NCBI GenBank assembly: GCA_964519985.1
Contig: CAZFMF010000011.1
Location: 6,695-70,694 of the forward strand
DNA from: an uncultured Pseudobdellovibrionaceae bacterium
GTDB lineage: Bacteria; Bdellovibrionota; FAC87; UBA2466
DNA length: 64,000 bases
Direction of reading: 5' to 3'
Below the pieces are notes generated by a model. That model ran no database searches. It was not told where the DNA came from and was given only the letters and a program-made list of their open reading frames with translations. Of this stretch, positions 43,605 through 63,800 are shown piece after piece (position 1 is the first letter of the stretch; each line of letters starts with the position of its first letter). The position numbers and the translations under genes are program-made.

Positions 43605-43635
43605 TCCCGCATTGTAACACCCGCCACGAAGCGGT

Positions 43636-44514: not shown

Positions 44515-44555
44515 GGCCAGCCCTATCGCAACGGCGACCGCGCGGCTTCGCCGTG

Positions 44556-44612
44556 TGGGATTGCTTCGGGCCTGAAGGCGCTCGCAATGACGGAAAGCTC
44601 GCAAAGACTGTT
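44556..44612. repeat. MITE-like dispersed repeat, partial copy C (TTGCTTCGGGCCTG..GCGCTCGCAATGACGG)
   Basis: Matches the right arm of copy A. Lies in the gap between the lipoprotein gene and the outer-membrane protein gene. Confidence 0.6.
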
Positions 44613-45107
44613 TCACTGGACCACGAGATCGATGGAGCTGCGATCCGCGGCGGGACCTTTGCCCAATTGGATATAAAGGATGTACTCACCCGGAGCCAGG
44701 CGAATATCCTCCGCCCGATAGGCCCCACCGATTTCCCGTAAGTCGAGATTGGTGACCGTTTTACAACACTTCATCACGACGAATGCCTGTGGCGGAGCGT
44801 GAGGGGCCACGGCAGTGCGGGTCGCATCCGCTTTCGGCCAGAATCGGACTTCAAACGCGGCCGGTTGATCCGCCGTAATCGGCGCATCCCATTGGATATC
44901 GCCCGAGAGCGCAGCCACCTTAAAACTCAAGTCGGGTGCACGATAGGCCGGCGTCGCGCCTTCGACGACCTTCGGCGCCCCGGCTTCCGTCGAGACCGGC
45001 GCCGGAGCGACCGGAAAATCGATGCTATCGCGATGAGCGATTTTCTCCCCCCCGCAACCTAAGAACAGCAAAAGTCCGAGGACAAAAAACGAGATAGGCC
45101 GCTTCAT
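44613..45107 (-). CDS. Lipoprotein, function unknown
   Basis: Start at MKRPISFFVLGLLLFLGCGG (lipobox LFLGC) with a GGAGA ribosome-binding site. The track ORF begins at 45188. Confidence 0.45.
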   Translation of the reverse strand: MKRPISFFVLGLLLFLGCGGEKIAHRDSIDFPVAPAPVSTEAGAPKVVEGATPAYRAPDLSFKVAALSGDIQWDAPITADQPAAFEVRFWPKADATRTAVAPHAPPQAFVVMKCCKTVTNLDLREIGGAYRAEDIRLAPGEYILYIQLGKGPAADRSSIDLVVQ

Positions 45108-45108
45108 C

Positions 45109-45624
45109 TTATCTCCTAATCGCGCAACCCACCGCGCGCGCTTCCGCTTTGGCGACTTTACGGCCGGCCAGTACATCGCCCAAGGCATCCCGCAAATAGT
45201 GCCGATTAGCCCGCTCTACGTCACGACTATCATCTACACCGCCGCGATAGACAACCTCGCCTTGGGCGATCACGAAAGCGTGGGGCGTGTTCAATGCGTC
45301 AAACGCATCGGCCCAGGCGTGCTCCCTTTCGGCGATCACCGGAAAGGGCAAACTGCCGTTGCGAAAATGCGCCGGCGCATCGGGCGCGTCGCCCGACACC
45401 ACGCCCAAAAAGCGCACCCTCGGATTTTGCTGGGCCAAAGTGGCCAACGCCGACTCGTGACCACGAGAACAGGGGCAAGACGGGGATAAAAAAACGACCA
45501 CGCTGGGTCCGGCCTGCGCGCTCCAACTCAGCGCTTTTCCGTTGCGCAGGTCGATGCCGCTAAAATCCAACGGCACCGCGTGCGCGGACAGCACCGTGGT
45601 GATCGCGAGCAGCAGAAGTCTCAT
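45109..45624 (-). CDS. Thioredoxin-fold (redoxin/TlpA-like) periplasmic protein
   Basis: Signal peptide MRLLLLAITTVLSAHA. Redox-cysteine region VVFLSPSCPCSRGHESAL. The start ATG overlaps the stop of the upstream epimerase gene (ATGA). Confidence 0.5.
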   Translation of the reverse strand: MRLLLLAITTVLSAHAVPLDFSGIDLRNGKALSWSAQAGPSVVVFLSPSCPCSRGHESALATLAQQNPRVRFLGVVSGDAPDAPAHFRNGSLPFPVIAEREHAWADAFDALNTPHAFVIAQGEVVYRGGVDDSRDVERANRHYLRDALGDVLAGRKVAKAEARAVGCAIRR

Positions 45625-46526
45625 CCCCCGGTTTCCTCGAGCCATTGCACGTAGTCCTTCACCGCGGCGGTAAAGCCCCACTGGGCTTCAAACCCTAACC
45701 GCGCTTTGGCTAATGCGATATCCGCGTGGGTATTGCCCTGGTACGTCGCGGTGTCATAGGGCATCGGAAAATATTCGGGCTTCAGCGAACGCCCCATCGC
45801 TTCGCTCAGCGCCGCGACGAGCTCATTAAACGTCGTCGCCACTCCGGAACCGACGTTGTAAACGCCGCTGGGTGCCGTCAGTGCCGCCAGATTCGCGCGC
45901 ACGACATCTTTGACGTAGATGAAGTCGCGCTTTTGCTCGCCCCACTCAAAGATTCGAGGGGGCTTTCCGGCTTTCACTTGCCGGTACAGGTGGTAAACCA
46001 TCGAAGCCGCCCGCCCCTTCGCGGCTTCCCGTGGGCCGAAAACATTGAAATACCGCAATCCGATGACGTCCGCTTCACGGCCGTAACGCAACGCAATTTC
46101 GTCCATCTGCCATTTCGATCTTCCGTAAGCGGTCAGCAGATGCTTTTCCTGGTCTTCGCGCATCGGCGTCGGACCGTTGCCGTACAGACCCGCGGTGGAA
46201 GCGTAAACGAGCCGGCACTTTGCCTTCAAACTGATATCGAGCAGGCGCTGAAACCCCGCGACATTTTTTTCGAGGACTTCGGCGTCATTCGGGTGGCGGG
46301 GATCGGTGATGTCACCATGGTGAAAGACCGCATCCCAAGGCCCTTCGGCGGCAAAAGCTTGGGTCACATCGGCCTCGATCAGACGGCCGCGAAAGCCGGC
46401 CAGGTTTGCCCGCGACCCCGTCTTAAAGGAGTCGACGGCCACCACTTCCGCGCCCTGCGCTTCGAGCTCCAAAACCAGATTCGAGCCGATGAAACCCGAA
46501 CCGCCGGAAACCAAATATCTGGGCAT
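45621..46526 (-). CDS. hldD: NAD-dependent epimerase/dehydratase, ADP-L-glycero-D-manno-heptose-6-epimerase-like
   Basis: Rossmann motif VSGGSGFIGSNL. Catalytic YxxxK region (YGRSKWQMDE). About 300 aa, typical of HldD/RfaD. The exact specificity is inferred. Confidence 0.7.
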   Translation of the reverse strand: MPRYLVSGGSGFIGSNLVLELEAQGAEVVAVDSFKTGSRANLAGFRGRLIEADVTQAFAAEGPWDAVFHHGDITDPRHPNDAEVLEKNVAGFQRLLDISLKAKCRLVYASTAGLYGNGPTPMREDQEKHLLTAYGRSKWQMDEIALRYGREADVIGLRYFNVFGPREAAKGRAASMVYHLYRQVKAGKPPRIFEWGEQKRDFIYVKDVVRANLAALTAPSGVYNVGSGVATTFNELVAALSEAMGRSLKPEYFPMPYDTATYQGNTHADIALAKARLGFEAQWGFTAAVKDYVQWLEETGG

Positions 46527-46729
46527 AACCCTCTGCTATCACATCGAAATCCCGATGCAAAGGCCATCGCCGACGGGTGTCCACTGCCTGTACACGCTAA
46601 CCCATTGAAAACAGGGCCGTTGCCCCTCGCGCGGAAAAACCCCCGTGAGCGGGCAGTCAAAAAGCCATTCAACACCCTGCGTAAACCGCAGGCCTCTGAC
46701 TTGCAAAATAGCGAGGTAGGGAGACACCA

Positions 46730-46990
46730 ATGAAACTCAACCAGGCTTTCTACTTCGTGACGCTTCTCACCTTGGCGACGCTTCCTGTGCTCGCGGAGCA
46801 AAAGGAAAACAAGCAAGCGAACTGCGAACTGCGGCTAGTTAGCAGCGCCGGAGCCGGCGAGATTTTCATGTCGATCTTCACCCGCAACGAAGAGGAATGC
46901 CTCTCGAAATCGGACCAAACCGTGGAAGCCAAATTCCATAAACGCAGCAATCTCGTTATCAAGCGCGGCGGCGCTGGTCCCCAGCAGTAA
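46730..46990 (+). CDS. Small secreted hypothetical protein
   Basis: Signal peptide MKLNQAFYFVTLLTLATLPVLA. 86 aa. Ends just before a MITE-like repeat. Confidence 0.3.
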   Translation: MKLNQAFYFVTLLTLATLPVLAEQKENKQANCELRLVSSAGAGEIFMSIFTRNEEECLSKSDQTVEAKFHKRSNLVIKRGGAGPQQ

Positions 46991-46992
46991 CT

Positions 46993-47129
46993 GTGTTGCT
47001 GCGAGCGTAGCTTGGCAGCCCCGCATCGCTTCGTCATTCCGAGCGTAGCGAAGGAATCCCGCATCGCTTCGCGATGCGAGGTTGCTTCGGGCCTGGCGGC
47101 CCTCGCAATGACGGCCCTCGCAATGACGG
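46993..47129. repeat. MITE-like dispersed repeat (GTCATTCCGAGCGTAGCGAAGGAATCCCGCATCGC core, with two terminal CCTCGCAATGACGG units), copy A
   Basis: Shares motifs of more than 25 nt with the copy at 63688-63800 and partially with 44560-44612. Contains the internal palindrome GCATCGCTTCGCGATGC. Confidence 0.75.
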
Positions 47130-47167
47130 AACTTGCCCTAAATCCGAGCAAAAGCTAATCTCCGGGC

Positions 47168-47611
47168 ATGCCTCGCCAGGAAGAAGAAGCTGCGCATTTT
47201 AAGCGCCTTTTAGATGCCAAGGGCCTCAAGCTCACCCACGAGCGCCAGCAGCTCCTGGAAGAGATTCTCAAAATCAAACACCACTTCGATGCCGATGGGC
47301 TCTACGAGCTTCTTAAGGAAAAGGGCTTACGGATTTCGCGCGACACCGTCTACCGCACCCTTCCCCTTTTTCTGGAGTGCGGCGTCGTGCAAAAAAGCGT
47401 GGGCGATGGCCGGCGCGAATACTTCGAGCGCATCGGCTCCAAAGGCCATCACGATCATATGATCTGCATTCAGTGCAGCCGAATTATCGAATTCAAGTCC
47501 GATGAAATCGAACGCATTCAGGATCAAGTCTGCAAAGACCACGGCTTTCGTCTCATCTTTCACGACCACCGCTTATTCGGCTATTGCCGTGATTGCCAAT
47601 CTCGGAGCTAG
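47168..47611 (+). CDS. fur: Fur-family metalloregulator (Fur/Zur/PerR)
   Basis: DNA-binding helix region. Metal sites HHDHMICIQC, CKDHGF and HRLFGYCRDCQ (two CxxC pairs). Confidence 0.85.
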   Translation: MPRQEEEAAHFKRLLDAKGLKLTHERQQLLEEILKIKHHFDADGLYELLKEKGLRISRDTVYRTLPLFLECGVVQKSVGDGRREYFERIGSKGHHDHMICIQCSRIIEFKSDEIERIQDQVCKDHGFRLIFHDHRLFGYCRDCQSRS

Positions 47612-47614
47612 AAA

Positions 47615-48163
47615 TTGGAAACGCTCTACTCTTGGGACTTGGGAGTTTACCGCTTCATCAATACGCATCTCACTGCGACTTGGTTAGATCCGACGATCTC
47701 CCTGCTCTCGTCCACCCTCTTCTGGACGGTCCTAATGGCACTCGCGTTCGGCGTGGCCGCGACGTTGCGCAAAACGCGCGCACTCAAACTGCTTGCCGCC
47801 ATCGCCGTGGCGATTGCGATCAGCGATGCGACGACGACCTACCTTTTGAAACCAAAGTTCAATCGCGTGCGCCCCTGCCACTACCTCGAAGGAGCGCGGC
47901 GGGTGGGAAACATTTGCGGCAGCCGCGAAGGCATGCCTTCCAATCACGCGGCCAACGGAATGGCCGCCGCGATCTTGGTCGGGATCTTTGCGTCTCAAAG
48001 CTGGTTTGTACTGGCCCTCTTCTTCGCTTTGATCGTAGGCTTCACCCGTATTTACCTGGGGGTGCACTACCCTACCGATATTCTGGTGGGCTACCTCTTC
48101 GGGACGGGCTTTGGCGCCCTGGTCGCCCTTTTCTTTAGGCCATTATTGGGGAGAAAAACATGA
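47615..48163 (+). CDS. Membrane PAP2-family phosphatase
   Basis: PAP2 motifs KPKFNRVRP, PSNHA and LGVHYPTDILVG within a multi-TM protein. Confidence 0.8.
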   Translation: METLYSWDLGVYRFINTHLTATWLDPTISLLSSTLFWTVLMALAFGVAATLRKTRALKLLAAIAVAIAISDATTTYLLKPKFNRVRPCHYLEGARRVGNICGSREGMPSNHAANGMAAAILVGIFASQSWFVLALFFALIVGFTRIYLGVHYPTDILVGYLFGTGFGALVALFFRPLLGRKT

Positions 48164-48477
48164 GTTGGGAAATCACACCGCGGGAGCTGAAAGAACGCCT
48201 GGACCAAGGCGACGCCCTACAGGTGGTCGATGTGCGCGATGCGGAAGAATTGAAAATCGCCAGTCTCGGCGCGATCCACATCCCGCTGACTGACCTGGTG
48301 ATGCGCTATCGCGAACTCGATCCGGAGCGAGAGACCGTATTGGTCTGCCACCACGGCATCCGCAGCGCGCAGGCGACACTCTTGCTCTCGCAACTGGGGT
48401 TCGACAAAGTGAAGAACCTTTCGGGTGGCATTGATCGCTGGTCGACCGACGTCGACCCCTTGGTGCCGAAATACTGA
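48160..48477 (+). CDS. Rhodanese-like sulfurtransferase domain protein
   Basis: Active-site loop VLVCHHGIRSAQA (CxxGxR). VVDVRDAEE. 105 aa. Confidence 0.85.
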   Translation: MSWEITPRELKERLDQGDALQVVDVRDAEELKIASLGAIHIPLTDLVMRYRELDPERETVLVCHHGIRSAQATLLLSQLGFDKVKNLSGGIDRWSTDVDPLVPKY

Positions 48478-48765
48478 TTAGCGTGCGGCGTAGTCGCAGA
48501 ATAAGAAGATAAAGCCGATCGCCAGGCCCACCAGACCACTGCAGATCGTAATCCAGATCATCTTAGAAGCTTCCCGCACGTGCATGAAGATCCAGACGAC
48601 TAAGACGGCCTTGAACGTCGCGATGCCCATCGCGATGACGTTCGCGGCCGCGCCGAAGTCGTGGTACGCGACCCAGACCGTCGCCACCAACCCCAACATC
48701 AAAATGGCATAGACCACGTAGTACGCGAAGGTGGAATGCCCATGTTCGTGAGTGTGCGCTGCCAT
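48478..48765 (-). CDS. coxD: Cytochrome c oxidase subunit IV (prokaryotic caa3-type)
   Basis: 95 aa with two transmembrane helices. Sits directly downstream of coxIII. The N-terminus ([23 protein letters not shown]) is typical of bacterial subunit IV. Confidence 0.65.
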   Translation of the reverse strand: MAAHTHEHGHSTFAYYVVYAILMLGLVATVWVAYHDFGAAANVIAMGIATFKAVLVVWIFMHVREASKMIWITICSGLVGLAIGFIFLFCDYAAR

Positions 48766-49406
48766 CAGTATCGTCCTATGAGATAGAAAAGCGGGAACAC
48801 GTAGATCCAGATCAAGTCCACAAAGTGCCAGTAAAGGCCGACCATCTCCACGCGCTGGTAGCGTTCCTTCGGATACGCGCCGCGCGCCGCTTGGACCGTG
48901 AACCAGGCCAAGATCCCCACCCCAATCAAAACGTGAAACCCGTGCAATCCCGTTGCGCCAAAGTACAGGCTGTAGAAAAGCTGGGCTTCGTTGCCGTACG
49001 GGGTGTCGAAGTGCCAGAGTTTTCCCGGCACGGAGCCCACGTGGAATTTGTGGGCATACTCGAAATACTTAATAACCAAGAAGGCGATTCCGGCTGACAT
49101 CGTGACGCCCAACAAAAAGGTCAGGCGTTTTTTGAGTCCGCGCTGGGCCGCGTTCACCGCCAACGCCATGGTCAAACTGCTCGTGAGCAGAATGCCGGTG
49201 TTCAGTGTCCCGAGCTGCACATCCAGGTGGTGGCTCATGTCGTGGAACATCTGCGGGTGCAAGTACCGGTAAATCGTGTACGAGAAAAAGATCCCGCCGA
49301 AGAACATGATTTCGGTCAGCAGAAACACCCACATCCCCAGACTGACGGATTCCCGTTGCTGGACGATGTCGTCGAAATGGTGCGCTAGATACGGGTTCGC
49401 GCTCAT
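48765..49406 (-). CDS. coxC: Cytochrome c oxidase subunit III
   Basis: Start at [13 protein letters not shown]... overlapping the coxI stop (ATGA). Conserved HHFD..QQ...LGMW, FFGG.F..Y and HGFH motifs. Confidence 0.9.
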
Positions 49407-51016
49407 GTACTGGCCCTCACTGGGTACGCGTAGGCATCTTCCGTCACCACCACGGGGGAAGTGAAGTTTTCCGTGGGCGGCGGCGAGGGAATCTGCCATT
49501 CCAGCCCCTTCGCGCCCCACGGATTCGCCGGTGACTTTTCGCCCTTAAACAAAGAGTACATCAAGTAGATCACCGGCAAGACGTACCCGATCCCCAGCAC
49601 GGTCGACCCGAGTGTCGACATCACGTGGTAGATCTGAAACTCCGGCGGATAGTAATGATACCGGCGCGGATTGCCGAGATAGCCCACGATAAACTGCGGG
49701 AAGAAGGTAAAGTTGAAGCCTACGAAGACCAGGATCGCAGCAATCTTCGCCCAGAACTCGTTGTAAAGGCGCCCGGTCATCTTCGGCCACCAGAAGTGCA
49801 GGCCACCCAGATAACCCATCAGCGCACCGCCCACCATGATGTAGTGGAAGTGCGCGACCACGAAGTAAGTGTCATGCAAGTGCACGTCGGTCGCGAGCGT
49901 CGACAAGAAGATTCCCGTCAAACCGCCGATGACAAACAACCCAATGAAGCCCAACGCGAAGAGCATCGGCGAATCGAGCGAAATAGAGCCCTTGTAGAGC
50001 GTCGCGGTATAGTTGAACGTCTTAATCGCGGACGGAACCGCCACCAAGAAACTGATCAGCGAGAAGACAACGCCGAGGTACGGCGATTGGCTACTCACAA
50101 ACATATGGTGGCCCCAGACCAGGAAACCCAAAACCGCGATCGCGATACTCGAAAACGCCACAAACCGGTAACCGAACATACGTTTGCGGGCAAAGGCCGT
50201 GACCAATTCCGCGATGACGCCGAGTGAGGGCAGAATCATGATGTAAACCGCGGGGTGCGAATAGAACCAGAAAAGATGTTGGAACAGCACCGGATCGCCA
50301 CCCTTGGCCGGATCGAAGATGCCAAAACCAAGCAGACGCTCAAGTGTCGCCAAGAAGAGCGTCACCGCGAGCACCGGCGTCGCCAGCACCATGATCAAGG
50401 ACGTCGCGTACTGCGCCCAAATAAAGAGCGGCATCCGGAACCACGTCATGCCCGGCGCGCGCATCTTGTGGATCGTGACGATGAAATTGAAACCGGTAAA
50501 AATCGACGAGAAACCCGCAATGAAAGCCCCGATCAGGGTCATTGCCACATGGCTCTTCGCAAACGCCGTGCTGTACGGGGTGTAGAAGGTCCAGCCCGTG
50601 TCGACACCGCCGGCGAGGATCGCGTACAGGATGCAGGCGCCGCCCGCCATGTACAAGTACCAGCTCAAAAGGTTGATCTTCGGAAAGGCCAAATCCCGCG
50701 CGCCCACCATTATGGGCACCAGAAAGTTTCCGAGCGTCGCCGGAATGGATGGCACCAAAAAGGCGAAGACCATGATCACGCCGTGCATGGTAAAAAGACG
50801 ATTGTAAGTATCCGACTGCAACAAGTCGCCCTGCGGGGTCAGCAGATCCAAACGGAAAATGAACGCCGCCAAACCGCCCAAGAAAAAGAAAAAGGAAATC
50901 GACACGAGGTACAAGATCGCGATGCGCTTGTGATCCACGGTCAGCAGCCACGACCGAATCGTGTGGCCGTTGTTCAGATAATTCTTAGGCTCTTCCGCCG
51001 AATACACCGCACTCAT
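49403..51016 (-). CDS. coxA: Cytochrome c oxidase subunit I (haem-copper oxidase catalytic subunit)
   Basis: Canonical subunit I sequence (GHPEVYILILP-like [22 protein letters not shown]). 12 transmembrane helices. Confidence 0.95.
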
Positions 51017-52023
51017 TTATGACTCCCAGAGGTCGACTTAATGTAGTCGATGACCTGCTTGATCTCGTCTTCCTTAATCACGCCCTGGTAGGGCGGCATC
51101 ACGGGGTTGTACCCCTTCACTACTTTCGCCGTGGACATCAAGATGGATTCTCGGATGTAGTTTTCGTCGACCGTCACGGACGCACCATTGGCCAAAGCCA
51201 CTTTGGTGCCGAAAATACCTTCTAGCTGCGGGGCCAATGTCGTGTTGCCGATCTGGTGGCACGCCCGGCACCCCTGCGACTCCAGCACCGCTTTGCCGGC
51301 GGCGCCCGGATCATTCGAAGAGACCACCACGGCCGCCGTGCCGCCCGCCGCGTTCACGGGCGTCCCGTCCCGATTCGGCCCGCCCTCGATCACCGGGCTC
51401 GCGAGCCAAGCTTCATAGTCCGCCACCGACATCACGATCACCTTGCCGACCATGCGGGAGTGCTCGGTGCCGCAGTATTCCGCGCAGAAAAGATGGTAAA
51501 CACCGGCTTTCGTCGGTTCGAACCAGGTCGAACTGTAGCGCATGGGCAAAACATCCTGCTTAATACGGAAGGCCGGGACGTAGAAACTGTGGATCACGTC
51601 CTGGGAAATCATCGTCATCTTCACCGCCTTGCCCACCGGCAAGTGCAGCTCGTTGATTTCACGACGGCCATCGGGATGCTGGAATTTCCACATCCACTGC
51701 TTGCCGACGGCGAAGATCTCCATCGTGCCGGTCGGGGGCGGATGATAGATGCCCAAGAAAAGTTTGGCGCCCCAAGCAAACAAAACCAATCCGATGAAAA
51801 GTGGGATGAGCGACCAGCCGACTTCCATCAAATGGTGTTCATGCACTTCCTGCGCAACCTCATTGCCCGGACGGCGGCGATACTTGATGGCGAAGATCAC
51901 GATCAGAGCGGAAATGACGACGACAAAGAACAGGCTCACCGCGATGAGCGCGAAGTAAAGCAAGTCAATATGGGGAGCGAGTTTAGACGCCTGCTCCGGG
52001 AAAAAACTAAACTTTCCGTACAC
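51013..52023 (-). CDS. coxB: Cytochrome c oxidase subunit II fused to a C-terminal cytochrome c domain (caa3-type)
   Basis: CuA site HSFYVPAF...[13 protein letters not shown]-terminal CRACHQ haem site. Confidence 0.9.
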
Positions 52024-52852
52024 TGTCTTCCTCTTCGCGTTTGCGTTGCTTTCGCTCGCGGCGCAGCATCGCCCAGATAAAGCCGCCGAGCGCCGTCACC
52101 GTCAGGCCGCTGAGACCGCGGACTACGCTCATGATGACAAAACCGTACTTCCCCTGCGTGGGATCGTATTTGTAGCAATACAGTAGAAGGTGATCCGCCA
52201 GCGTCCCGATCTTGTTCTCGCTCGCTTCCACCATCCCCAAGCGCAAATCGTTCGGGTTGTAATGAATCCCGTAGAGATAGCGCGAGATTTTACCTTTGGG
52301 CGTTGCGATCAAGATCCCGCTCGGATGAACGTATTCGCCCGTGCTGGGATCGTAGCGGTAAGTAAACCCGATGCTATCCGCCACTTTCTTGATCTGGCTT
52401 TCCTCGCCGGTCAGAAAGAAAGTGCCCGACTCGAGGTCGGGGCGATTGTAGGTATGCAGATAGGTTTTGCGCTTCTTCGCGGCCGCCTCCGGCGTTTCCG
52501 CCGGATCGATGCTGATAAAAACAACCCGGTAGGCTTCCGGAACATTGAAGCGCACGCGGGAAAGCGCTTGGAAAGTTTCACGGTAAATCACCGTGCACAT
52601 ATTCGGGCATCGGGCGTAAGCCATGGCGAGCACGACCGGGCCCTTGCCAAAGACTTCCCCCAGCTTCATTTCCTTGCCGTCACTATTGGTGAAAACGGCA
52701 TCCATCGGAAGCTGCGCGTTCAGCTTTTGGTCAAAGGCCAGCCCTTGAATAATCGTCTGGGTGGTATTGTACGCCCCACCGGTCGGGCGAAACCCGCCCT
52801 CGGCGAATCCGAGACTCGAAGCCAAGAGCAGAATGGGAAACACGGCCCTCAC
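52007..52852 (-). CDS. SCO1/SenC family copper chaperone
   Basis: Signal/anchor. CxxxC motif MAYARCPNMCT. Conserved downstream His region. Thioredoxin fold. Positioned next to the oxidase genes. Confidence 0.85.
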   Translation of the reverse strand: MRAVFPILLLASSLGFAEGGFRPTGGAYNTTQTIIQGLAFDQKLNAQLPMDAVFTNSDGKEMKLGEVFGKGPVVLAMAYARCPNMCTVIYRETFQALSRVRFNVPEAYRVVFISIDPAETPEAAAKKRKTYLHTYNRPDLESGTFFLTGEESQIKKVADSIGFTYRYDPSTGEYVHPSGILIATPKGKISRYLYGIHYNPNDLRLGMVEASENKIGTLADHLLLYCYKYDPTQGKYGFVIMSVVRGLSGLTVTALGGFIWAMLRRERKQRKREEEDSVRKV

Positions 52853-53217
52853 TTCGAGCCCCCTCGAGCCGGAAGGCCTTTGTCGATAACGAGATTCATC
52901 GCGCGCTGGATCGGAATGCGCACCACTCCCTGCGGTCGGTTCACCCAGCCGTACGTCGACAGATGCTCGAGCTGAGCCTTCTTAAAGGCGGCCATTTCGT
53001 CCTGCGGCCGCGATTGGAGCGGAGGAAACGTCATGGGCCGCTTCAAAACCAATTCCGGATCCGGGTGCATATGCGGCGTACCGTAAACATAGAAAACGAA
53101 CGCACAGGTGGCGCCGATCATCGCAAAAAGCCCAATGGCCCACAGGAACAGCCCCTTAAGCGGCAGGTCCTTTTCGTAGTAATCGATCGTCGTCGAAGTT
53201 TCGGAGTGTTTTTGCAT
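52849..53217 (-). CDS. Small single-TM membrane protein of unknown function between actF and SCO1 (possibly an accessory ACIII/oxidase subunit)
   Basis: Start at MQKHSETSTTIDYYEK.. (ATG overlaps the actF stop, TAATG). One transmembrane helix LFLWAIGLFAMIGATCAFVFYVYG. The track ORF extends to 53580 by read-through. Confidence 0.4.
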   Translation of the reverse strand: MQKHSETSTTIDYYEKDLPLKGLFLWAIGLFAMIGATCAFVFYVYGTPHMHPDPELVLKRPMTFPPLQSRPQDEMAAFKKAQLEHLSTYGWVNRPQGVVRIPIQRAMNLVIDKGLPARGGSK

Positions 53218-54422
53218 TAGTGCTTCTTCTCCGTATGGGGTTTGTCTTGCGGACCCCCGTGCGACCCACCATGCGGATGGTGCGCCAGTGCGTGAGCGGG
53301 ATCGGGAATGCCCGCGCTTCTCCCCAAGAAAGCAAAGTAAAGGGCAGCCCAGAGACTGCCTAATGCCACTGGGGCCACGACGTCCATCCACTGGACGGGG
53401 AACGTGCCGATACGCACGCCCGGGGCGATGAGCCAGATCTGCTCGAACGCCCGGCCGAAGAGCAGGAAGAAAGCCACGCAAACGAGGAAGCGCGGATTCT
53501 TCTTGGCCCGAGCCGAGAGCAGTAGGCAGAACGGGATGGCCCATTGCAGCAGCGGCAGGATCGTACTCATCACCGGCCAACCGCCGATGCTACGCTCGTA
53601 GTACCAGAACGTTTCTTCCGGCAAGTTCCCCGACCAGATGATGAGGAACTGGGAAAGACTCATGTAGCCCCAGAGCATGATGCACATGAAAAGGAACTTG
53701 CCCAAGTCATGCAGATTCTTTTCATTCAACCAGGGGTTCGGAGTGGTCTTCGCCATCGCCACGAGACTGATGACAGAAATCGAAAAGGCGGACATCGCGC
53801 AGCCCACTAGCGTAATGGCACCGAAGATACTCGAAAACCAGTGCGGCTCGACCGACATCACCCAATCAATGGCGGCAAAACTGACCGTGAGGACGAAGAG
53901 CAAAAGACCGCCCGCGCTCAGGCGCTGCACGCGATGCACTTTGGACCAATCCGTGCTCCCCGGATTCGGAATCAGCCACCGGCGCAACCACCAGGCGAGA
54001 ATAATCCAGAACACGAAATAACCCGCCGAGCGGATCATCCACCAATGAGCATTGAGATAAATCGCTTTACTCTGTAGCGCGGCGTCGTGGGCCACCAGTT
54101 CGTGATTGGTCCACGGGTAGATCACGTTCATTCCTACCGCGATGGGCAGAAACAAGATCGCCATCGCCGGTAACGTGCACATCCCCGCTTCGAGGAATGG
54201 GCGAATGGTCCAACCCCAGCGTCCGCCGGACAGGTTGTGCACCATGGTCAACCCAAGGCAACCCAGTGGAATCGCGATCGCAAAGGCATAGCCTTGCAAA
54301 TACGAAAGAAAAAACTGCGGCCGATTCATCAGGAAACCGAAGACCAGCAGTCCGGCGCCGATCACGGCCGGCAGTACCATCATGCGCTTATAGGAAGCCG
54401 CGCCTGAAAACGCCAAACTCAT
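53217..54422 (-). CDS. actF: Alternative complex III subunit ActF (NrfD-like polytopic membrane protein)
   Basis: About 400-aa multi-TM protein homologous in layout to ActC. Position after actE in an actABCDEF-ordered cluster. Confidence 0.7.
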   Translation of the reverse strand: MSLAFSGAASYKRMMVLPAVIGAGLLVFGFLMNRPQFFLSYLQGYAFAIAIPLGCLGLTMVHNLSGGRWGWTIRPFLEAGMCTLPAMAILFLPIAVGMNVIYPWTNHELVAHDAALQSKAIYLNAHWWMIRSAGYFVFWIILAWWLRRWLIPNPGSTDWSKVHRVQRLSAGGLLLFVLTVSFAAIDWVMSVEPHWFSSIFGAITLVGCAMSAFSISVISLVAMAKTTPNPWLNEKNLHDLGKFLFMCIMLWGYMSLSQFLIIWSGNLPEETFWYYERSIGGWPVMSTILPLLQWAIPFCLLLSARAKKNPRFLVCVAFFLLFGRAFEQIWLIAPGVRIGTFPVQWMDVVAPVALGSLWAALYFAFLGRSAGIPDPAHALAHHPHGGSHGGPQDKPHTEKKH

Positions 54423-55012: not shown

Positions 55013-55541
55013 GGACGCCTCGCGGATTCAAACTCTTCAGAAATGCTTTGGTCTGACTCAAATCAAACTTCGGATCCGTTGCTTCAATGCCGATGAAGAA
55101 CGCGTCCTTCGAAGCGCGCGCAAATTCGGGGACATTGAAAAGTGGGTGGTAGTGTCGCGGCAACCCGTTTAAACCAATCATGCCAAATACGGCCGTGAAG
55201 CCCGAGAGCAAAACGGTGAGCTCAAACATGATCGGAAAATACATCGGCCAGCTGAAAAGCGGGCGACCGCCCACGTTGATCGGATAATCAATGGCCGAAA
55301 TCCAAAACATCATGGCAAACGCCGTCAGCAAACCGGTGATTCCGCCCCCGAGAATGAGAAAGCCAATCCTCGAATGGTGCTTGCCCAACGCTTCAATGAG
55401 CCCTTCCACGGGAAAGGGCGAATAAGCGTCGGTCTTGGAATACCCCGCGGCGTGGACCTTACCCGCGGCTTCGATCAAGCTTTCCACCGTCGGGAATTCG
55501 GCGATGAGGCCGAAAGTCGTCGGCTCCTTTGCCTTATCCAT
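54996..55541 (-). CDS. actD: Alternative complex III subunit ActD (DUF3341 membrane protein)
   Basis: About 181 aa with two transmembrane helices. Conserved position between actC and actE. Confidence 0.65.
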   Translation of the reverse strand: MDKAKEPTTFGLIAEFPTVESLIEAAGKVHAAGYSKTDAYSPFPVEGLIEALGKHHSRIGFLILGGGITGLLTAFAMMFWISAIDYPINVGGRPLFSWPMYFPIMFELTVLLSGFTAVFGMIGLNGLPRHYHPLFNVPEFARASKDAFFIGIEATDPKFDLSQTKAFLKSLNPRGVHEVQP

Positions 55542-56913
55542 GATGGGCTCCCTTTTTCTTATGATCCTCTTCCGTCACGAGCACCCGCATTTCGAAGACC
55601 GAAATCAGCGGCAAGACCCGGATGAAAATAAAGAGCAAGCTAAAGAAGAGTCCAATCGTTCCGAGGAACATCGACCAGTCAAAGGCCGTCGGGTAGTACA
55701 TGCCCCAGTTGGCCGGCAGAAAATCGGCGGACAAGCTGACCACGATAATCACAAAGCGCTCCAGCCACATCCCGGTATTGACCACTAAGGACATGAGGAA
55801 CAGGAAGGGAATATTGCGCCGCAAGCGACGGAACCAGAGCAGCTGCGGAATCGCCACATTGCACGCGAGCAATGCGTAGTACAGGTATTTGTAGGGCCCG
55901 ATGAAACGATTGAGCAGCATGTATTTTTCGTATTCGCTGCCGCTATACCACCCGATGAACCCTTCGATCAGGTAGCCGTAGGCCACGATCAAACCGGTGA
56001 GCAACATGACTTTCGCCATATTGTTCAAGTGGCGCATCGTGATGAAGTCTTGGAGTTTGAAGATAGCGCGCGTCGGGATCATCAACGTCAAAACCATTGC
56101 GAACCCGGAATAAATCGCACCGGCCACAAAGTACGGCGGGAAAATCGTCGTGTGCCAACCCGGCACGATGCCCACCGCGAAGTCGAAGCTCACGATCGTA
56201 TGGACCGAAAGCACGAGCGGCGTGGCCAACCCGGCCAGGATCAAATAAATGGTTTCGTAGCGGTTCCAATGGACGGCCGAACCGCGCCACCCGATGGCCA
56301 GCACGCCGTAGATCATGCGCTGCCATTTATGCGGCGAATGATCGCGCAGGGTGGCGAAGTCGGGAATCAAACCGACCAACCAAAACAGCAATGACGTCAG
56401 CCCGTACGTCGAAATCGCAAAAACGTCCCACATTAGGGGGCTGCGAAACTGCGGCCAAATCGACATCACATTGGGATACGGCAGCACCCAGTAGGCTCCG
56501 ACTTCCGGACGACCCATGTGCAAGATGGGAAAGAGCGCGGCGCAAGCCACCGCGAAGAGCGTCATCGCTTCGGCGAAACGGTTAATCGACGTGCGCCAGT
56601 CTTGACGGAACAAAAGCAAAATCGCCGAAATCAAAGTTCCGGCGTGGCCGATCCCGATCCACCAAACGAAATTGATGATGTCGAAACCCCAACCGACCGG
56701 GATGTTGATCCCCCAGATCCCGACGCAATATTTAAAGAGCATGCCGACGGTATAGAGCATGCCCATTAAGAGCGTGAAGGCGATCGAGAAACCAAAGAGC
56801 CAACCCGGACGGATCTTTTCCTTAACGACGATGTCGTTGATCTTGTCGGTAACCGTAGCCAGCGTCTGGCGACCGCCCAATACGGATTCAGGAGCTAGCT
56901 TGGATTGACTCAT
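55534..56913 (-). CDS. actC: Alternative complex III subunit ActC (NrfD/PsrC-like quinol-interacting membrane subunit)
   Basis: 459-aa polytopic protein with NrfD-like helices, immediately downstream of the molybdopterin/FeS subunit. Confidence 0.8.
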   Translation of the reverse strand: MSQSKLAPESVLGGRQTLATVTDKINDIVVKEKIRPGWLFGFSIAFTLLMGMLYTVGMLFKYCVGIWGINIPVGWGFDIINFVWWIGIGHAGTLISAILLLFRQDWRTSINRFAEAMTLFAVACAALFPILHMGRPEVGAYWVLPYPNVMSIWPQFRSPLMWDVFAISTYGLTSLLFWLVGLIPDFATLRDHSPHKWQRMIYGVLAIGWRGSAVHWNRYETIYLILAGLATPLVLSVHTIVSFDFAVGIVPGWHTTIFPPYFVAGAIYSGFAMVLTLMIPTRAIFKLQDFITMRHLNNMAKVMLLTGLIVAYGYLIEGFIGWYSGSEYEKYMLLNRFIGPYKYLYYALLACNVAIPQLLWFRRLRRNIPFLFLMSLVVNTGMWLERFVIIVVSLSADFLPANWGMYYPTAFDWSMFLGTIGLFFSLLFIFIRVLPLISVFEMRVLVTEEDHKKKGAHHG

Positions 56914-59852
56914 GCGGGCTTCTCCGATTCGAGCGCCGGGTTCGGATTCGTCACCTTGCCTAAATATGTGGTTCGCGGCTTGGTATTGAGCTCACCCAGA
57001 AGCGAGTAATTCTGCTCCGCCGCCTTTAGCTTCGAAACCAGACTGCCCGCATCGGAGATATCGCCGAACGTGATCGACTTGGTTGGGCAGGCCGCCTGGC
57101 ACGCCGTAACCACTTCCCCGTCCCGAATTTTGCGGTTCTCGTTCTTGGCGGTGATGCGCGCTTCGCTGATGCGCTGCACGCAGTACGTGCATTTTTCCAT
57201 CACCCCGCGACTGCGAACCGTCACATCGGGGTTTTGCACCATCTTCGTCGTGGGCGTGATGGTGTTGGTGTATTCGTAGAAATTGAAGTGCCGTACTTTG
57301 TACGGGCAGTTGTTGGAGCAGTACTTTGTGCCCACGCAACGGTTGTAGACCATGTTGTTCAGGCCTTCGTTGTCGTGAACGGTCGCGCCAACCGGACAAA
57401 CGATTTCGCACGGCGCCGTTTCGCAATGCACGCAAGCCACGGGCTGTTGCAGCGTCTTGGGATTTTCCGGATCACCCTCGTAGTAGCGGTCAATGCGCAA
57501 CCACTGCATTTCACGACCGCGCGACGCTTCGATTTTGCCCACCACCGGAATATTGTTCTCGGCCTGACAAGCGACGACGCACGCATTGCAACCATTGCAG
57601 GTCGTCAGATCGATCGCCATGCCCCACTGGTGATCCGCGGGTCCCACCGGCGCAATCGGTCCGCCGGCGGTGCCGACGTCCTTGCCTTCAAGGGCCTTGG
57701 GACCATGCATGTGAATCTGCGCCCAATGCGGGTGGTGTTTATGGGTTTCGAGGGTTGCCGTGCGCACAATCGCCCGGCCTTCCATCGAGCCGTGGTTCTG
57801 GGTGCAGGCAATCTTGTAATACCGATCCGTCTTTTGGACTTCCACGCCCTGGTAGTGCCAGGTGGAGCCGGAGAGCCGGAACGGGAACGCGTTAAAACCA
57901 ATTCCGGTCCCGAGTTTGCCGGCATGCGTTCGGCCGTAGCCAAAGTTCATCGTAACGGTGTTGTCGGCCTGACCAGGAGTGATCCATGTCGCCGCGTCGA
58001 CGGCCTTTTCACCCCAAACGATCCGGGCCATGTGCTCCGACTTCAGGCCCAAACGCCCCGCCGCCGCCGGCGCCACATACGCGGCGTTGTCCCAAACGAC
58101 TTTGGTCATCGGCTTGGGCAACTCCTGCAGCCAACCGTTATTGGCGAAGCGCCCATCAAAAATCGTCGGATCCGGACGGAAGATCACTTCAATGGCTTGC
58201 GCGCTGGCGGGGCGACCGACCTTGGCCCAATCGGATCCCTTCACGGCCACGCGTTTGTCCGCCGCGGCCGAACCGGCAATAAAGCCCTGATTCAACGCCT
58301 TCTTCCACCAGACTTCGAAATCCCCACTCGCCTTGCCCTTCCAGTAGGCCCGCACGATATCGTAGCCCGTGGAAGTCGTATCGCCCATCAGCGCCGCTAG
58401 GACTTCGTGGTGCGACTTGCCGTTGTAAAGCGGCGCAATCAGTGGCTGCACAATTCCGACCGTGCCATCGAACGCCTTCGCATCACTCCATTGCTCAAGG
58501 TAATGCGCTTCCGGAATATGGTAATTGCAACGGGAACCGGTTTCGTCGACATACAGGCCGCAGTGGATGCGGTTCTTCACCTTTTCCATCGCCGCTACGA
58601 ATTCGAGATCGGTGGGCGCGTTGTACGCGGGATTGCCGCCTAAGATAATGAGCGTGTCGACCTTGCCGGAACGCATGTCCAACGCGAGCGATTTGATCGA
58701 ATCGTTTTGAGCAACCGAATTCACCATCACCGGCGCGGTGTAGCGCACCGTCTTGCCCACATTGCCCAGCCGAGCATTGATCGCATGCGCCAACGCGTGC
58801 ACCAGCGGTGACTGCCAAAGCCCCGCCGCCACGACACCCGCTCCGCCGTTCGCCTTAAGATCGGCCGCCGCCGCTTTCACCCACGCCTGGTGCACCGGCG
58901 ACAGTTCCACTTTACCGGAAACGGAAACGCCGCATTCTTGCGCCAGTGCCGCCGCGATAAACTCGATATCGGACGCGCGCGCGACAATTTTATGATCCGC
59001 GCTGCCCCCGGTAACCGAGGGCGTCGGCTCTACCGCGTAAAGACGATTCATTTCTTTGCGGCCGCCGGTGAGTCGACGGGCGTTGGCAAAGTCATGGGCA
59101 TAGCGCGGGGTCGCCGGCTCGGTCATGAAATCACTATCGAGCGCCACGACCACCTTGGCTTTGTCGAAGGCGTAAATCGTCGCGACGTCTTCACCGAAGG
59201 CTAAGATCGCGCCTTGGCGTTCGGTATCCCGGTGCACAGGCTCAAACTGATGCCACTGCGCCGACGGATATTTTTTTAGGAAATCTTGGATCTGCGCGGC
59301 CAGCGTCGGCGAAATCACCGGCTGGGTGAGGATGCGCATCCCTTCGCCTTTTTTGGCGGCATGGCTTGCGGCAATATTGCTGAGGTTCGCGGCGTACCCG
59401 GCCCAAAAAGCCAAATTGCCCTGTGACGAAAGGCTCTGCGAGCGATCCGGATCATAGATATCGAGCACCGAGGCTTGCGCGTAGGCGTCGGTCGTTCCCA
59501 GACTCGCCGGGTGATCGGGATTGCCCTCAACCTTGGTCGGACGGCCCATATGGCTTTCCACCAAAAGGCCAATCGCGCGTCCGTTCAAAGCCATCGACGT
59601 GGCGAAAAACATCGGTTTACCCGGAATCATCTGCTCCGGGGACTTCACGTAGGGAACGATTTTTTGTTGGGGCATGCGCGTGCACGCCGAAGCGCCCAGC
59701 ACGGCCACCATTCCGCTCGTCCACTCCATGAACTCACGACGGCTCAAAAAATCATTGTTAAACGGGTTGAAACGCTCGGGCGCCTTGGGGCCCGAGGTCC
59801 GCTCTTCCAGACTGCGCCACTGTTTCTTGTCTTGCTCGCTCATCGATGACAC
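56910..59852 (-). CDS. actB: Alternative complex III subunit ActB (TAT-exported molybdopterin-oxidoreductase-like domain fused to a 4Fe-4S ferredoxin domain)
   Basis: TAT motif SRREFMEWTSGMVAVLGASA. Multiple CxxCxxCxxxCP ferredoxin clusters in the C-terminal third (CNGCNACVVAC, CVHCETAPCEIVCP, CSNNCPYKVRHF). 980 aa. Confidence 0.9.
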   Translation of the reverse strand: MSSMSEQDKKQWRSLEERTSGPKAPERFNPFNNDFLSRREFMEWTSGMVAVLGASACTRMPQQKIVPYVKSPEQMIPGKPMFFATSMALNGRAIGLLVESHMGRPTKVEGNPDHPASLGTTDAYAQASVLDIYDPDRSQSLSSQGNLAFWAGYAANLSNIAASHAAKKGEGMRILTQPVISPTLAAQIQDFLKKYPSAQWHQFEPVHRDTERQGAILAFGEDVATIYAFDKAKVVVALDSDFMTEPATPRYAHDFANARRLTGGRKEMNRLYAVEPTPSVTGGSADHKIVARASDIEFIAAALAQECGVSVSGKVELSPVHQAWVKAAAADLKANGGAGVVAAGLWQSPLVHALAHAINARLGNVGKTVRYTAPVMVNSVAQNDSIKSLALDMRSGKVDTLIILGGNPAYNAPTDLEFVAAMEKVKNRIHCGLYVDETGSRCNYHIPEAHYLEQWSDAKAFDGTVGIVQPLIAPLYNGKSHHEVLAALMGDTTSTGYDIVRAYWKGKASGDFEVWWKKALNQGFIAGSAAADKRVAVKGSDWAKVGRPASAQAIEVIFRPDPTIFDGRFANNGWLQELPKPMTKVVWDNAAYVAPAAAGRLGLKSEHMARIVWGEKAVDAATWITPGQADNTVTMNFGYGRTHAGKLGTGIGFNAFPFRLSGSTWHYQGVEVQKTDRYYKIACTQNHGSMEGRAIVRTATLETHKHHPHWAQIHMHGPKALEGKDVGTAGGPIAPVGPADHQWGMAIDLTTCNGCNACVVACQAENNIPVVGKIEASRGREMQWLRIDRYYEGDPENPKTLQQPVACVHCETAPCEIVCPVGATVHDNEGLNNMVYNRCVGTKYCSNNCPYKVRHFNFYEYTNTITPTTKMVQNPDVTVRSRGVMEKCTYCVQRISEARITAKNENRKIRDGEVVTACQAACPTKSITFGDISDAGSLVSKLKAAEQNYSLLGELNTKPRTTYLGKVTNPNPALESEKPA

Positions 59853-60508: not shown

Positions 60509-60591
60509 GAATTCGCTTTCGACTCTCGTTCGTCAAATCAAAGTTGAATGGTCAAATTTGTGCCTATTATTCGGGACGATAAGCCGATCCG

Positions 60592-61875: not shown

Positions 61876-61894
61876 GGTTGAAGTCTCCCGCCGA

Positions 61895-63664
61895 CTATTC
61901 TCGTTGAGAATCGCCGGAGTTGGAACGAGGAAATCGGCAAAAGAACGTACTGCCCGCGCCCGGAGAACTTTCTACCCAAACCGCGCCTTCGTGGCGCTGC
62001 ATGATGTGTTTCACGATCGCCAGCCCCAGCCCGGTGCCGCCCTGTTCGCGGCTACGCGCTTTGTCGACGCGGTAAAACCGTTCAAAAAGTCGCGAATGGT
62101 GTTCGACCGGAATTCCCGGCCCCGAATCGCGCACGCGAAGCACGGTTGCACCGGCGTCGTTGGCCCACCCGATGCTCACCTTTCCGCCGGCCGGCGTGTA
62201 CTTGTTCGCATTCGAAAGCAAATTCACCAAAACCTGTTCGAGCCGAGGCATATCCGCTACGACGGTCTTTTCCTCGTAGCTGGTCTCAATCGTCTGCGCT
62301 TTGGTGTCGAAGGCGCCCTTTAACTGCTTCAAGATCCGCTGCGTGACTTCCTCGGTGCTGAGCGGGTCCTTCTGGATAATACTGTCCGACTCCAATGAGG
62401 AGAGATCCAAAAGGTCGTTCATCAAATTCATCAGCCGATCGCTGTTGCGAGCAATGCTATTGAGATGTTCCAGCCCTTCGACGTCTTTCTTTTTGAAATC
62501 TTCAATGAGCGTGTCCGCGTACCCTTTGATCACGGTGAGCGGCGTGCGCAACTCATGCGAAACGTTGGCCACAAAATCGATGCGCATTTGTTCAGCGGCT
62601 TTCAATTCCGTCACGTCGTGGAAAATTCCCAACGCGCCGTAGATCGCGCCGTCCTGCCGGCGTAGCGGAGAAACGGAAAGGGTGAAGTAACGGCGCGGTC
62701 CCTGCTTCTGGTCGAGCGGAATCGCCTTAGTCGCGCCGGTCCGCCCTTCCTTCAACGCGGCTTCGAAGGTGCTGAGAATGTCCGGATCCCGGAATATCCC
62801 CCAGAGTTTGATATTGCGCTTGCGCAAGCCCTCGTTGCCAAAAACCATTTCGAAGCGACTATTGAAGAAGAGCGGCCCGCCTTCGGGATCCACCGCCAAG
62901 ATCGCATCGGAAATGGATCCCATCAGTGTGTCCAGCTCGACCTGTTCCATCGAAAGGCTCTGGGTCTTGGCGGCGAGGTCGCGCTTCAGGCGATCGATAT
63001 TGGATTCCAGGTCCGCCCACTCATCGAAGACTTCCTGGGTCAGATCGTCTTTAGAGACGACTTCGGGTTGTTGCGAGACCAGTCGCTGGGTCTTGAGGAT
63101 CAGCCGTCCCAAGGGGAACACCAGCCGGCGCGCCAACCAGATGGCCAAAATGCCGAGGATGAGCGCCACGACGGCCAACGCGATCCCGAACGAGGTGTCA
63201 AAGACACGCAAGGTTTCTACAAGCGCGGTCAACGGGATGGCGGCACGCAGCACCGGGCCACCTTCCGAAACGCGCAAGGCGGCAAAGAGGCGATCCGGTT
63301 CGCGTTCGTAGACGACCCGCCCCGCCGCCGCCCCCAGAAACTCCCGGCGCTGGCTCAAATCGCCGCTCTGCCCATCGGAGTCGCAAGCGATCGCGCCATT
63401 TGGGTGGATCCAAGTAAAGCGCAGGCCCGTGGCTTTTGCGTACTCGCGGCACCATTCGGAGGGCGCGGTGGGCCCCAATTTTAAAGAAGCCGAAATGAGG
63501 ACATCGTGCAGTCGCTCTTCAATCTGCACCACAAACTGCCGCTTCAGCAGCTCCCGCGCCACCAACCCCGAACTCGCCAACGCCACCAGGATAAAAAACG
63601 ACTGAAAAATAGCGACGCGGTAAAAAATCCGCCAAGGAAAAAGCTTTGGAGCCGCACCCGCCAT
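61895..63664 (-). CDS. Membrane sensor histidine kinase (periplasmic sensor, HAMP, PAS, HisKA, HATPase_c)
   Basis: Two transmembrane helices flank a periplasmic domain. H-box VSHELRTPLTVI. N box LLSNANKYT. G boxes RDSGPGIP and GGTGLGLAIVKHI. Confidence 0.85.
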   Translation of the reverse strand: MAGAAPKLFPWRIFYRVAIFQSFFILVALASSGLVARELLKRQFVVQIEERLHDVLISASLKLGPTAPSEWCREYAKATGLRFTWIHPNGAIACDSDGQSGDLSQRREFLGAAAGRVVYEREPDRLFAALRVSEGGPVLRAAIPLTALVETLRVFDTSFGIALAVVALILGILAIWLARRLVFPLGRLILKTQRLVSQQPEVVSKDDLTQEVFDEWADLESNIDRLKRDLAAKTQSLSMEQVELDTLMGSISDAILAVDPEGGPLFFNSRFEMVFGNEGLRKRNIKLWGIFRDPDILSTFEAALKEGRTGATKAIPLDQKQGPRRYFTLSVSPLRRQDGAIYGALGIFHDVTELKAAEQMRIDFVANVSHELRTPLTVIKGYADTLIEDFKKKDVEGLEHLNSIARNSDRLMNLMNDLLDLSSLESDSIIQKDPLSTEEVTQRILKQLKGAFDTKAQTIETSYEEKTVVADMPRLEQVLVNLLSNANKYTPAGGKVSIGWANDAGATVLRVRDSGPGIPVEHHSRLFERFYRVDKARSREQGGTGLGLAIVKHIMQRHEGAVWVESSPGAGSTFFCRFPRSNSGDSQRE

Positions 63665-63687
63665 CCGCCCACGTTACCTCGGGTTTT

Positions 63688-63800
63688 CGGTCATTGCGAG
63701 GCCTTCCGTCATTGCGAGGGCGCAGCCCGAAGCAACCTCGCATCGCCGTCATTCCGAGCGCAGCGAAGGAATCTCGCATCGCGTAGCGATGCGACCCCCG
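63688..63800. repeat. MITE-like dispersed repeat, copy B (two CCGTCATTGCGAGG units, then GTCATTCCGAGCGCAGCGAAGGAATCTCGCATCGC core)
   Basis: Same core as copy A. The terminal GTCATTGCGAGG units are in inverted orientation relative to copy A, implying terminal inverted repeats in the full element. Confidence 0.75.

Follow-up and report, generated by a model that had tools for sequence, protein, structure and literature searches.

Three intergenic clusters of a CGTC-tagged hairpin repeat, probably related to Ssn targets, in an uncultured Pseudobdellovibrionaceae bacterium

Described relatives and the three repeat loci

Two described classes of short bacterial repeats are closest to the elements reported here, which occupy three intergenic loci in a stretch of 64,000 nucleotides (hereafter the window; positions 6,695 to 70,694 of contig CAZFMF010000011.1, assembly GCA_964519985.1) from an uncultured Pseudobdellovibrionaceae bacterium. 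The first is the superfamily of CGTC-tagged repetitive extragenic palindromes (REPs), which includes the Neisseria dRS3-type repeats and some Rickettsia palindromic elements (Di Nocera, De Gregorio and Rocco 2013, BMC Genomics 14:522; PMC3733652). These repeats consist of an unpaired CGTC or TGTC (also CCTC) tag, a stem starting with A-T and a short tail with the consensus CCA, and are mostly found as HH dimers; in families 1-4 the stem measures 8-9 bp and the loop 4-5 nt (PMC3733652).

The second class comprises the Ssn-related motifs (SRMs), among them the NTS repeats (CGTCATTCCCGCG..GCGGGAATC, in full CGTCATTCCCGCGMAVGCGGGAATCYRG), which are the Neisseria member of the CGTC-tagged kind. SsnA, a single-domain GIY-YIG nuclease of 94 aa, binds and cuts NTS only as single-stranded DNA, with the cut site a few nt 5' of the motif (Chenal et al. 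2025, Nat Commun 16:2388; PMC11893778). The GTC is required for cleavage and the C after the palindrome for binding, while the loop is dispensable. The Neisseria Ssn system lowers the integration of transforming DNA; ssn genes typically lie between their own hairpins, and 81% of the genomes with >200 motifs encode an Ssn (PMC11893778).

We consider it likely that the three loci of the window are clusters, resembling bacterial interspersed mosaic elements (BIMEs), of an Ssn-related, CGTC-tagged hairpin repeat of the NTS kind, that they represent a GA-bulged subtype and that they were inserted recently in this lineage. The class assignment of the units rests on tested features, and anatomy, covariation, insertion polymorphism and the association of the unit type with ssn in other genomes are each observed.

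The loci extend over 44509-44609 (copy C), 46991-47130 (copy A) and 63689-63794 (copy B). They are real, and their motifs lie far above chance: with at most one mismatch, GTCATTGCGAGG matched at five places, 44580-44591(-), 47101-47112(-), 47116-47127(-), 63690-63701(+) and 63708-63719(+), against 0.33 expected, and none of 100 shuffles reached five. Two matches to the 26-nt core GTCATTCCGAGCGYAGCGAAGGAATC, at 47033 and 63748, compare with 0 expected. An earlier note on this DNA had described three intergenic copies, with a common core of more than 40 nt and an internal palindrome in A and B, and was correct in both respects. Copies A and B have 48 nt in common at 92% identity (47032-47079 vs 63747-63794) and a perfect inverted match of 22 nt (47071-47092 vs 63725-63746); the palindrome reads GCATCGC-TTC-GCGATGC in copy A, and its loop is GTA instead in copy B. 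The extents given in that note needed correction. Copy A, placed at 46993-47129, is present as an inserted block of 46991-47130, and the partial copy C, placed at 44556-44612, is real but starts at 44509 and ends at 44609, comprising a degenerate inverted unit, a spacer hairpin, a unit and a half-head.

Copy A has a small secreted-protein open reading frame (ORF; 46730-46990) on one side and fur (47168-47611) on the other. Minus-strand genes flank copy C on both sides, and copy B precedes a PAS histidine kinase gene. Two short-read (Logan) contigs of the same organism stop at window positions 47055 and 63777, within the A/B common core, as would be expected of an assembler encountering a repeat. 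A full-text literature query with the 11-mer returned primer lists only.

The loci are mosaics of a tagged hairpin unit of 27-35 nt, not three copies of one element. The unit follows a fixed plan: a CGTC tag, a 5-bp stem (ATTGC/GCAAT or ATTCC/GGAAT), a purine internal loop with GA on the 5' and GAA on the 3' side, a variable mini-hairpin closed by G-C, and a C. Between the two stem versions both sides have changed and pairing is kept, a double compensation. The features are as follows.

46991-47130, no strand assigned: copy A, whole inserted block, from the stop codon of ORF 46730-46990 to the ACTTGCC... leader of fur; empty in relatives
46992-47029, plus strand: A1, degenerate unit (TGTGTTGCTGCGAGCGTAGCTTGGCAGCC) with tail CCGCATCGC; 67% identity to the reference core in family D2
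47032-47058, plus strand: A2, complete unit CGTC-ATTCC-GA-GCGTAGC-GAA-GGAAT-C with compensatory stem; from core match and predicted fold
47060-47078, no strand assigned: apex hairpin CGCATCGC-TTC-GCGATGCG between the two inverted units of copy A; from sequence and fold
47080-47113, minus strand: A3, complete unit CGTC-ATTGC-GA-GGGCCGCCAGGCCC-GAA-GCAAC-C, forming a tags-outward pair with A2; from motif and predicted fold
47115-47128, minus strand: A4, half-head CGTCATTGCGAGGG, 3' half absent; from motif scan
63689-63701, plus strand: B1, half-head GGTCATTGCGAGG; from motif scan
63707-63746, plus strand: B2, complete unit CGTC-ATTGC-GA-GGGCGCAGCCC-GAA-GCAAC-C (63707-63737) with tail TCGCATCGC; from motif and predicted fold
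63747-63773, plus strand: B3, complete unit CGTC-ATTCC-GA-GCGCAGC-GAA-GGAAT-C; from core match and predicted fold
63774-63794, no strand assigned: hairpin TCGCATCGC-GTA-GCGATGCGA, with no inverted unit after it; from sequence and fold
44509-44533, plus strand: C2, degenerate unit (CGTCATGGCCAGCCCTATCGCAAC); head with 2 mismatches
44538-44558, no strand assigned: spacer hairpin CCGCGCGGC-TTC-GCCGTGTGG, with position and loop as in copy A and a different stem sequence; from sequence and fold
44559-44592, minus strand: C1, complete unit CGTC-ATTGC-GA-GCGCCTTCAGGCCC-GAA-GCAAT-C; from motif and predicted fold
44598-44609, minus strand: C0, degenerate half-head AGTCTTTGCGAG; from unit scan

Five units are thus complete (A2, A3, B2, B3 and C1) and two degenerate (A1 and C2), and every locus has a half-head, consisting of just the tag and the 5' half, at a distance of 15-18 nt upstream of a complete unit. 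The tag is CGTC in six of the eight clear heads, GGTC in B1 and AGTC in C0. All complete window units carry GTC just 5' of the palindrome and C just 3' of it; their tails are CCC or CTC, compared with the CCA of the CGTC REP consensus, and elsewhere C followed by CAG or TCA is common. The units are arranged as tags-outward inverted pairs (A2/A3 and C2/C1), direct repeats and half-heads. In copy A the right arm is inverted and the left unit degenerate, and copy B is without a right arm. A YCGCATCGC module is present in each locus and in A and B forms the apex hairpin with its own inverted copy. Folding of the element, suggested in the earlier note, was predicted for copy A as DNA and gave z = -3.0 for the plus and -3.5 for the minus strand.

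Filled and empty insertion sites

The site of copy A is empty in four syntenic relatives (L226, L227, L323/L324 and L327). L226 is a metagenomic contig syntenic with window positions 43630-49675, and its Fur is 80% identical to that of the window. There, the stop codon of the small ORF runs directly into ACTTGCC..., 37 nt before fur, where the window has 140 nt (46991-47130). Across the relatives the gap from the stop codon to the ACTTGCC/CTTGCCC block is 0-12 nt. Fur of L227 is 73% identical, and COX1 of L323/L324 and L327 is at least 90% identical. The copy A junctions were read by eye; MAFFT gave no clean alignment of filled and empty sites. The copy C site is also empty in L226, in which the two genes abut (GTGAAGTGA). 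In L327 the site may be empty too: the two ORFs after the epimerase, candidate counterparts of the genes flanking copy C, overlap by 4 nt. Neither L323 nor L327 contains a unit in 21.6 kb each, and the insertions are therefore recent and lineage-specific: the elements were recently inserted into intergenic spacers of this lineage.

Presence and absence were also recorded among eight related phage contigs (portal proteins 61-92% identical), in which the spacer between the portal gene and the next gene is filled in four and empty in four. In three of the filled spacers there is one unit, extended by CCCCC/GGGGG arms and bordered by CTCA on each side; the fourth has another unit inserted elsewhere in the spacer. 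The filled contigs are L033, L047, L102 and L058, the empty ones L003, L037, L055 and L115. This portal spacer of 20-25 nt after the portal gene is an insertion hot spot with at least two independent insertions, and units thus occur in phage-like contigs. A functional placement of the units beside capsid or portal genes was considered and rejected; the pattern is a presence/absence polymorphism in one phage family. Insertion-site duplications were looked for, as the earlier note had proposed, and none was clear: the copy A junctions have an ambiguous A/AAC in common, and CTCA occurs at three of the four phage insertions.

The gene at 43636-44616(-) illustrates the effect of an insertion on annotation. 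The suspicion that copy C creates a spurious extension of this ORF was justified, as its true start is the ATG at 44514, followed by a lipoprotein-type signal peptide (MTAPRLLLAAACC) and matched by the L226 homologue. The ATG itself (CAT at 44512-44514) sits in CCATGACGG, the degenerate inverted head of C2, and the N-terminus of the L226 homologue differs (VKPRGF...). The lipoprotein-like gene 43636-44514(-) may thus owe its present start codon to the repeat.

Distribution of the unit, its link to ssn and other window features

In the viral collection IMG/VR the pattern GTCATTSCGAGS-N3-18-GAAGSAAYC had at least 120 matches, on contigs of 31-72% GC; the exact ATTCC core of the window had no match there. 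True units were found in genomes of Omnitrophota, Ignavibacteriales, Chloroflexota (Chloroflexia/Anaerolineae) and Rhodospirillales, as well as on plasmids or chromids of Novosphingobium (at least 40 places on one replicon), Methylobacterium, Methylosinus, Legionella and Aulosira. The pattern used to scan genome contigs, GAAGSAAYCYCGCATCGC, was too unspecific for 596 Gb, with about 9 of 103 loci being true elements, and its 12 matches in viral contigs were due to chance.

Tag and foot are nearly invariant across 217 instances, and the flanks show no conservation. Of 193 IMG/VR units, 90 have a C and 95 a T in front of GTC (185 with one or the other), and the tail is often CAG or TCA. The inner segments are variable (114 distinct) and retain pairing: 105 are closed by G...C, nested Watson-Crick pairs average 2.36 per segment vs 0.41 after shuffling, and compensatory swaps such as GGC-GAA-GCC vs GCC-GAA-GGC are numerous. 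Of the segments, 36 have the form G-GA-(stem-loop)-GA-C. Neighbouring units (up to 150 nt apart) were arranged tags-outward in 20 pairs, directly in 5 and tags-inward in none; the usual gap in the tags-outward pairs is 22-28 nt.

Two further observations concern half-heads and longer repeats. Half-heads (YGTCATTGCGAG without the 3' half) sit 15-28 nt upstream of a complete unit; the spacer is often rich in pyrimidines, and some half-heads form tandem arrays. They were seen at 63689-63701, 47115-47128(-) and 44598-44609(-) in the window, at 1810-1880 of L239, and in L033, L006 and L058, that is, in unrelated contigs and beside an ssn gene. In the Rhodospirillales metagenome-assembled genome GFS_5624 (L154, L170, L215), perfect inverted unit pairs form part of a longer conserved repeat (>150 nt), with conservation on both flanks; the pair may be carried along within a larger repeat or use one as its target. 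An association of the elements with neighbouring genes was examined and discarded: of the ORF clusters beside 129 element loci, ten were compared with Pfam, and eight of these were phage structural genes and two had no match, which reflects the viral collection.

The published SRM motif misses all 208 units compared with it, and ssn genes were therefore looked for directly. Gonococcal SsnA was recovered, with Y6, Y17 and E64 corresponding to the residues mutated by Chenal et al. (PMC11893778), together with homologues on plasmids and in viral contigs; the gene type is a cd10448 GIY-YIG protein of ~95 aa. The GA-loop unit architecture flanks ssn, on both sides, in four genomes or contigs. On plasmid p1 of Planktothrix agardhii (L239), TGTCATTCTGAGTGAAACGAAGAATCTC pairs and tandem half-heads lie on either side of ssn. 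In the metagenomic contig L252, ssn has CGTCATTGCGAGAAGGAACGACGAAGCAATC pairs on either side, which are of the window's ATTGC type; another metagenomic contig, L242, likewise has GA-loop units beside ssn; and in Spirosoma oryzicola (L340) the gene is flanked by TGTCATCCCGAGGAACGAGGGATC. The proteins encoded beside GA-loop units match Pfam GIY-YIG (PF01541), and that of L252 is 45% identical to gonococcal SsnA (E = 1e-28). In Neisseria, Azospirillum, Novosphingobium and Rhizobium, and at 38 of the 80 ssn loci on viral contigs, the hairpins flanking ssn are of the classical CGTC kind. Separately, the Erythrobacteraceae-like viral contig L088 contains a frameshifted ssn homologue (10596-10892) with CGTC hairpins of another subtype (CGTCAGCCCGGGCTTGACCCGGGC) on both sides; at 8354 the contig also has a single head of the type found in the window.

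Together with the described biology of NTS, the proposed assignment would imply the following course. The unit would fold when the DNA is single-stranded, during replication, repair or in incoming DNA. A small single-domain GIY-YIG Ssn nuclease, putatively encoded elsewhere in this genome, would recognise the tag, the stem foot and the following C, and would cut a few nt 5' of the tag. Such a cognate Ssn may also take part in the copying and spread of the units, which would behave as selfish non-autonomous elements recently inserted into intergenic spacers.

Several results weigh against this assignment. The SRM motif, HGTCWYN(0-2)YYVSBRHN(0-5)WNVSBRGN(0-2)RNCYNB, matched none of 208 units, and its sole match in the window (31484-31518) is unrelated to them. 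An ssn homologue was found neither in the 64-kb window nor, except in L088, beside units in the loci fetched by unit pattern; simple GIY-YIG regular expressions gave no match among the ORFs next to units. The YCGCATCGC module was present in none of the 193 viral units and is hence lineage-specific, and the unit census for the organism itself covers the 64-kb window. The CGTC REPs differ in having 8-9-bp stems and 4-5-nt loops, against the 5-bp stem, GA/GAA loop and inner hairpin of 5-25 nt in the window. Finally, single units take the drawn fold under nearest-neighbour DNA parameters, but its stability does not exceed that of shuffles (z = +0.7 to -1.4), whereas Neisseria NTS is far stronger (z = -4.0). 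The structural case therefore rests on covariation and on the purine-purine pairs predicted in the GA/GAA loop, to which the energy model probably gives no credit.

Other features of the window belong to different subjects. A second short repeat family consists of five perfect copies of the 16-nt palindrome aCTCCGGCGCCGGAGt (14456, 17052, 23062, 25682 and 40280) and degenerate copies near 14109 and 45837. Three copies lie 20-50 nt past the stop codons of ORFs 18040-23037, 23913-25655 and 38291-40228, with no T-run after them; the family could be an operator or another REP-like element. A respiratory cluster at 49403-59852 combines alternative complex III (ActB-like 56910-59852, NrfD 55534-56913) with a haem-copper oxidase (COX1 49403-51016), and its gene order is conserved in L323 and L327. 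The closest COX1 relatives with a name show 70-74% identity and are labelled Planctomycetota, Acidobacteriota or Kiritimatiellia.

Alternative explanations and comparison with known systems

Among the alternatives to Ssn-related repeats, a role at the RNA level fares best and is nevertheless unlikely. The elements would be transcribed hairpins for termination, 3'-end protection or translation control of fur or the lipoprotein gene, roles of the kind that have been proposed for REPs (PMC3733652). Units do lie in gaps between genes of the same direction, in many cases 15-30 nt past a stop codon, and in the spacer hairpin of copy C the stem pairs with G-U on one strand only. However, a T-run is absent, close relatives lack the elements at the same sites, and SsnA shows no RNA binding (PMC11893778). 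Rfam covariance models placed only a tRNA above the gathering threshold in the window and nothing on the elements at E <= 10. No strand bias was seen for single units in co-directional gaps, with 27 in the same sense and 24 in the opposite. This count is the only result used from gene-context statistics made with crude greedy ORF calls, in which 85 clusters fell inside ORFs that were most likely over-extended. A secondary effect of the elements on mRNA is possible.

It is somewhat less probable still that the loci are inactive relics, decayed copies whose mobilising enzyme was lost, as in the 'going extinct' scenario of Di Nocera et al. The degenerate units A1 and C2, the half-heads and the lack of an enzyme gene in the window would fit decay. 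Against it, copies A and B are still 92% identical over 48 nt and 100% over 22 nt, and the insertions are recent, as relatives whose COX1 is at least 90% identical carry no unit in the stretches compared.

REPs of the GTAG type and their doublets (REPINs), recognised and moved by a REP-associated tyrosine transposase (RAYT; a Y1 HUH transposase of the IS200 family), follow the same logic of tag and hairpin foot, inverted doublets, mosaic clusters and insertion without clear duplication. We nonetheless regard this origin as very improbable. The tag is CGTC/TGTC and not GT[AG]G, and CGTC repeats are reported not to flank any tyrosine transposase gene (PMC3733652). A cognate transposase, whose existence the earlier note had left to be checked, was not found: tblastn with 14 RAYT/TIRYT sequences returned nothing at E <= 0.01 in the window and 224 loci. 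The gene flanked by the GA-loop unit type encodes a GIY-YIG nuclease instead.

Hardly credible, finally, is the view, close to that of the earlier note, that the loci are a classical miniature inverted-repeat transposable element (MITE) of ~140 nt, with doubled GTCATTGCGAGG ends as terminal inverted repeats and moved in trans by the DDE transposase of a related insertion sequence: copy A does have inverted units and folds as a long hairpin, and the copies are intergenic insertions, but no copy has doubled ends at both termini, module number and order differ among the three, the entity repeated elsewhere is a single 26-35-nt unit inserting alone, no target-site duplication is unambiguous, and no transposase was seen, phage structural genes being the only ones identified among the ten neighbour ORF clusters checked in Pfam. 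The element that the note had described, palindromic overall with terminal inverted repeats, was a composite of two copies. Its label of MITE-like is apt for small, non-coding, multi-copy, hairpin-forming and non-autonomous insertions and fails on structure, as these are tagged hairpin units without terminal inverted repeats.

Under the preferred assignment to Ssn-related hairpin repeats, a known repeat class is extended and no new transposon type is defined. The window records a recent, lineage-specific burst of a hairpin repeat whose best-studied relative is the substrate of a site-specific single-stranded DNA nuclease limiting the recombination of incoming DNA. The unit type lies outside the published SRM motif yet flanks ssn, and the range of Ssn hairpins is therefore wider than currently defined. 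Natural pairs of filled and empty sites make it possible to study how such repeats spread, which is useful but builds on known work and is no surprise. For annotation, the units need masking, given false 5' ORF extensions (43636-44616), broken short-read assemblies and spurious hypothetical proteins in many phyla. More tentatively, and with some doubt on our part, the GA/GAA-bulged unit (YGTC-ATTGC-GA-(variable hairpin)-GAA-GCAAT-C) might constitute a distinct Ssn-target subfamily, present across phyla and in phage-like contigs, outside the SRM motif and the four CGTC families, and still inserting without clear target duplication. In that case the copying mechanism would have left its footprints in the clean filled and empty sites and in the recurring half-heads, and the multiplication of CGTC repeats would become directly testable, including a GIY-YIG nuclease as mobiliser.

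Compared with known systems, MITEs (e.g. Correia, Nezha, ERIC) are, like the window elements, small, non-autonomous, intergenic and foldable; their defined terminal inverted repeats, fixed length and target-site duplications are not seen in the window. The REP/BIME clusters of E. coli and the REPINs of Pseudomonas are likewise mosaics of short tagged palindromes in alternating orientation, with inverted doublets the commonest form, but differ in the GTAG tag and the RAYT.

The CGTC REPs agree with the window units in the CGTC/TGTC tag, in a stem that begins with A-T paired to A-T at the 3' end and, less clearly, in the short tail. In both, inverted dimers prevail, the position is intergenic, no transposase is adjacent and many phyla are represented. 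The window type differs further in its frequent half units and in the extra YCGCATCGC module of the window copies. The GA-loop unit is set apart from the CGTC families by stem and loop sizes, and a Bradyrhizobium CGTC-1 subtype may be the same unit. Also close is the Neisseria NTS. Its predicted hairpin is much stronger than that of the window-type unit, and its enzymology is known, whereas the GA-loop subtype is known from sequence alone. The loop is dispensable in NTS and the interior is variable in the window type, and the NTS foot equals that of the window unit letter for letter: CGTC, the ATTCC...GGAAT stem and the C that follows it.

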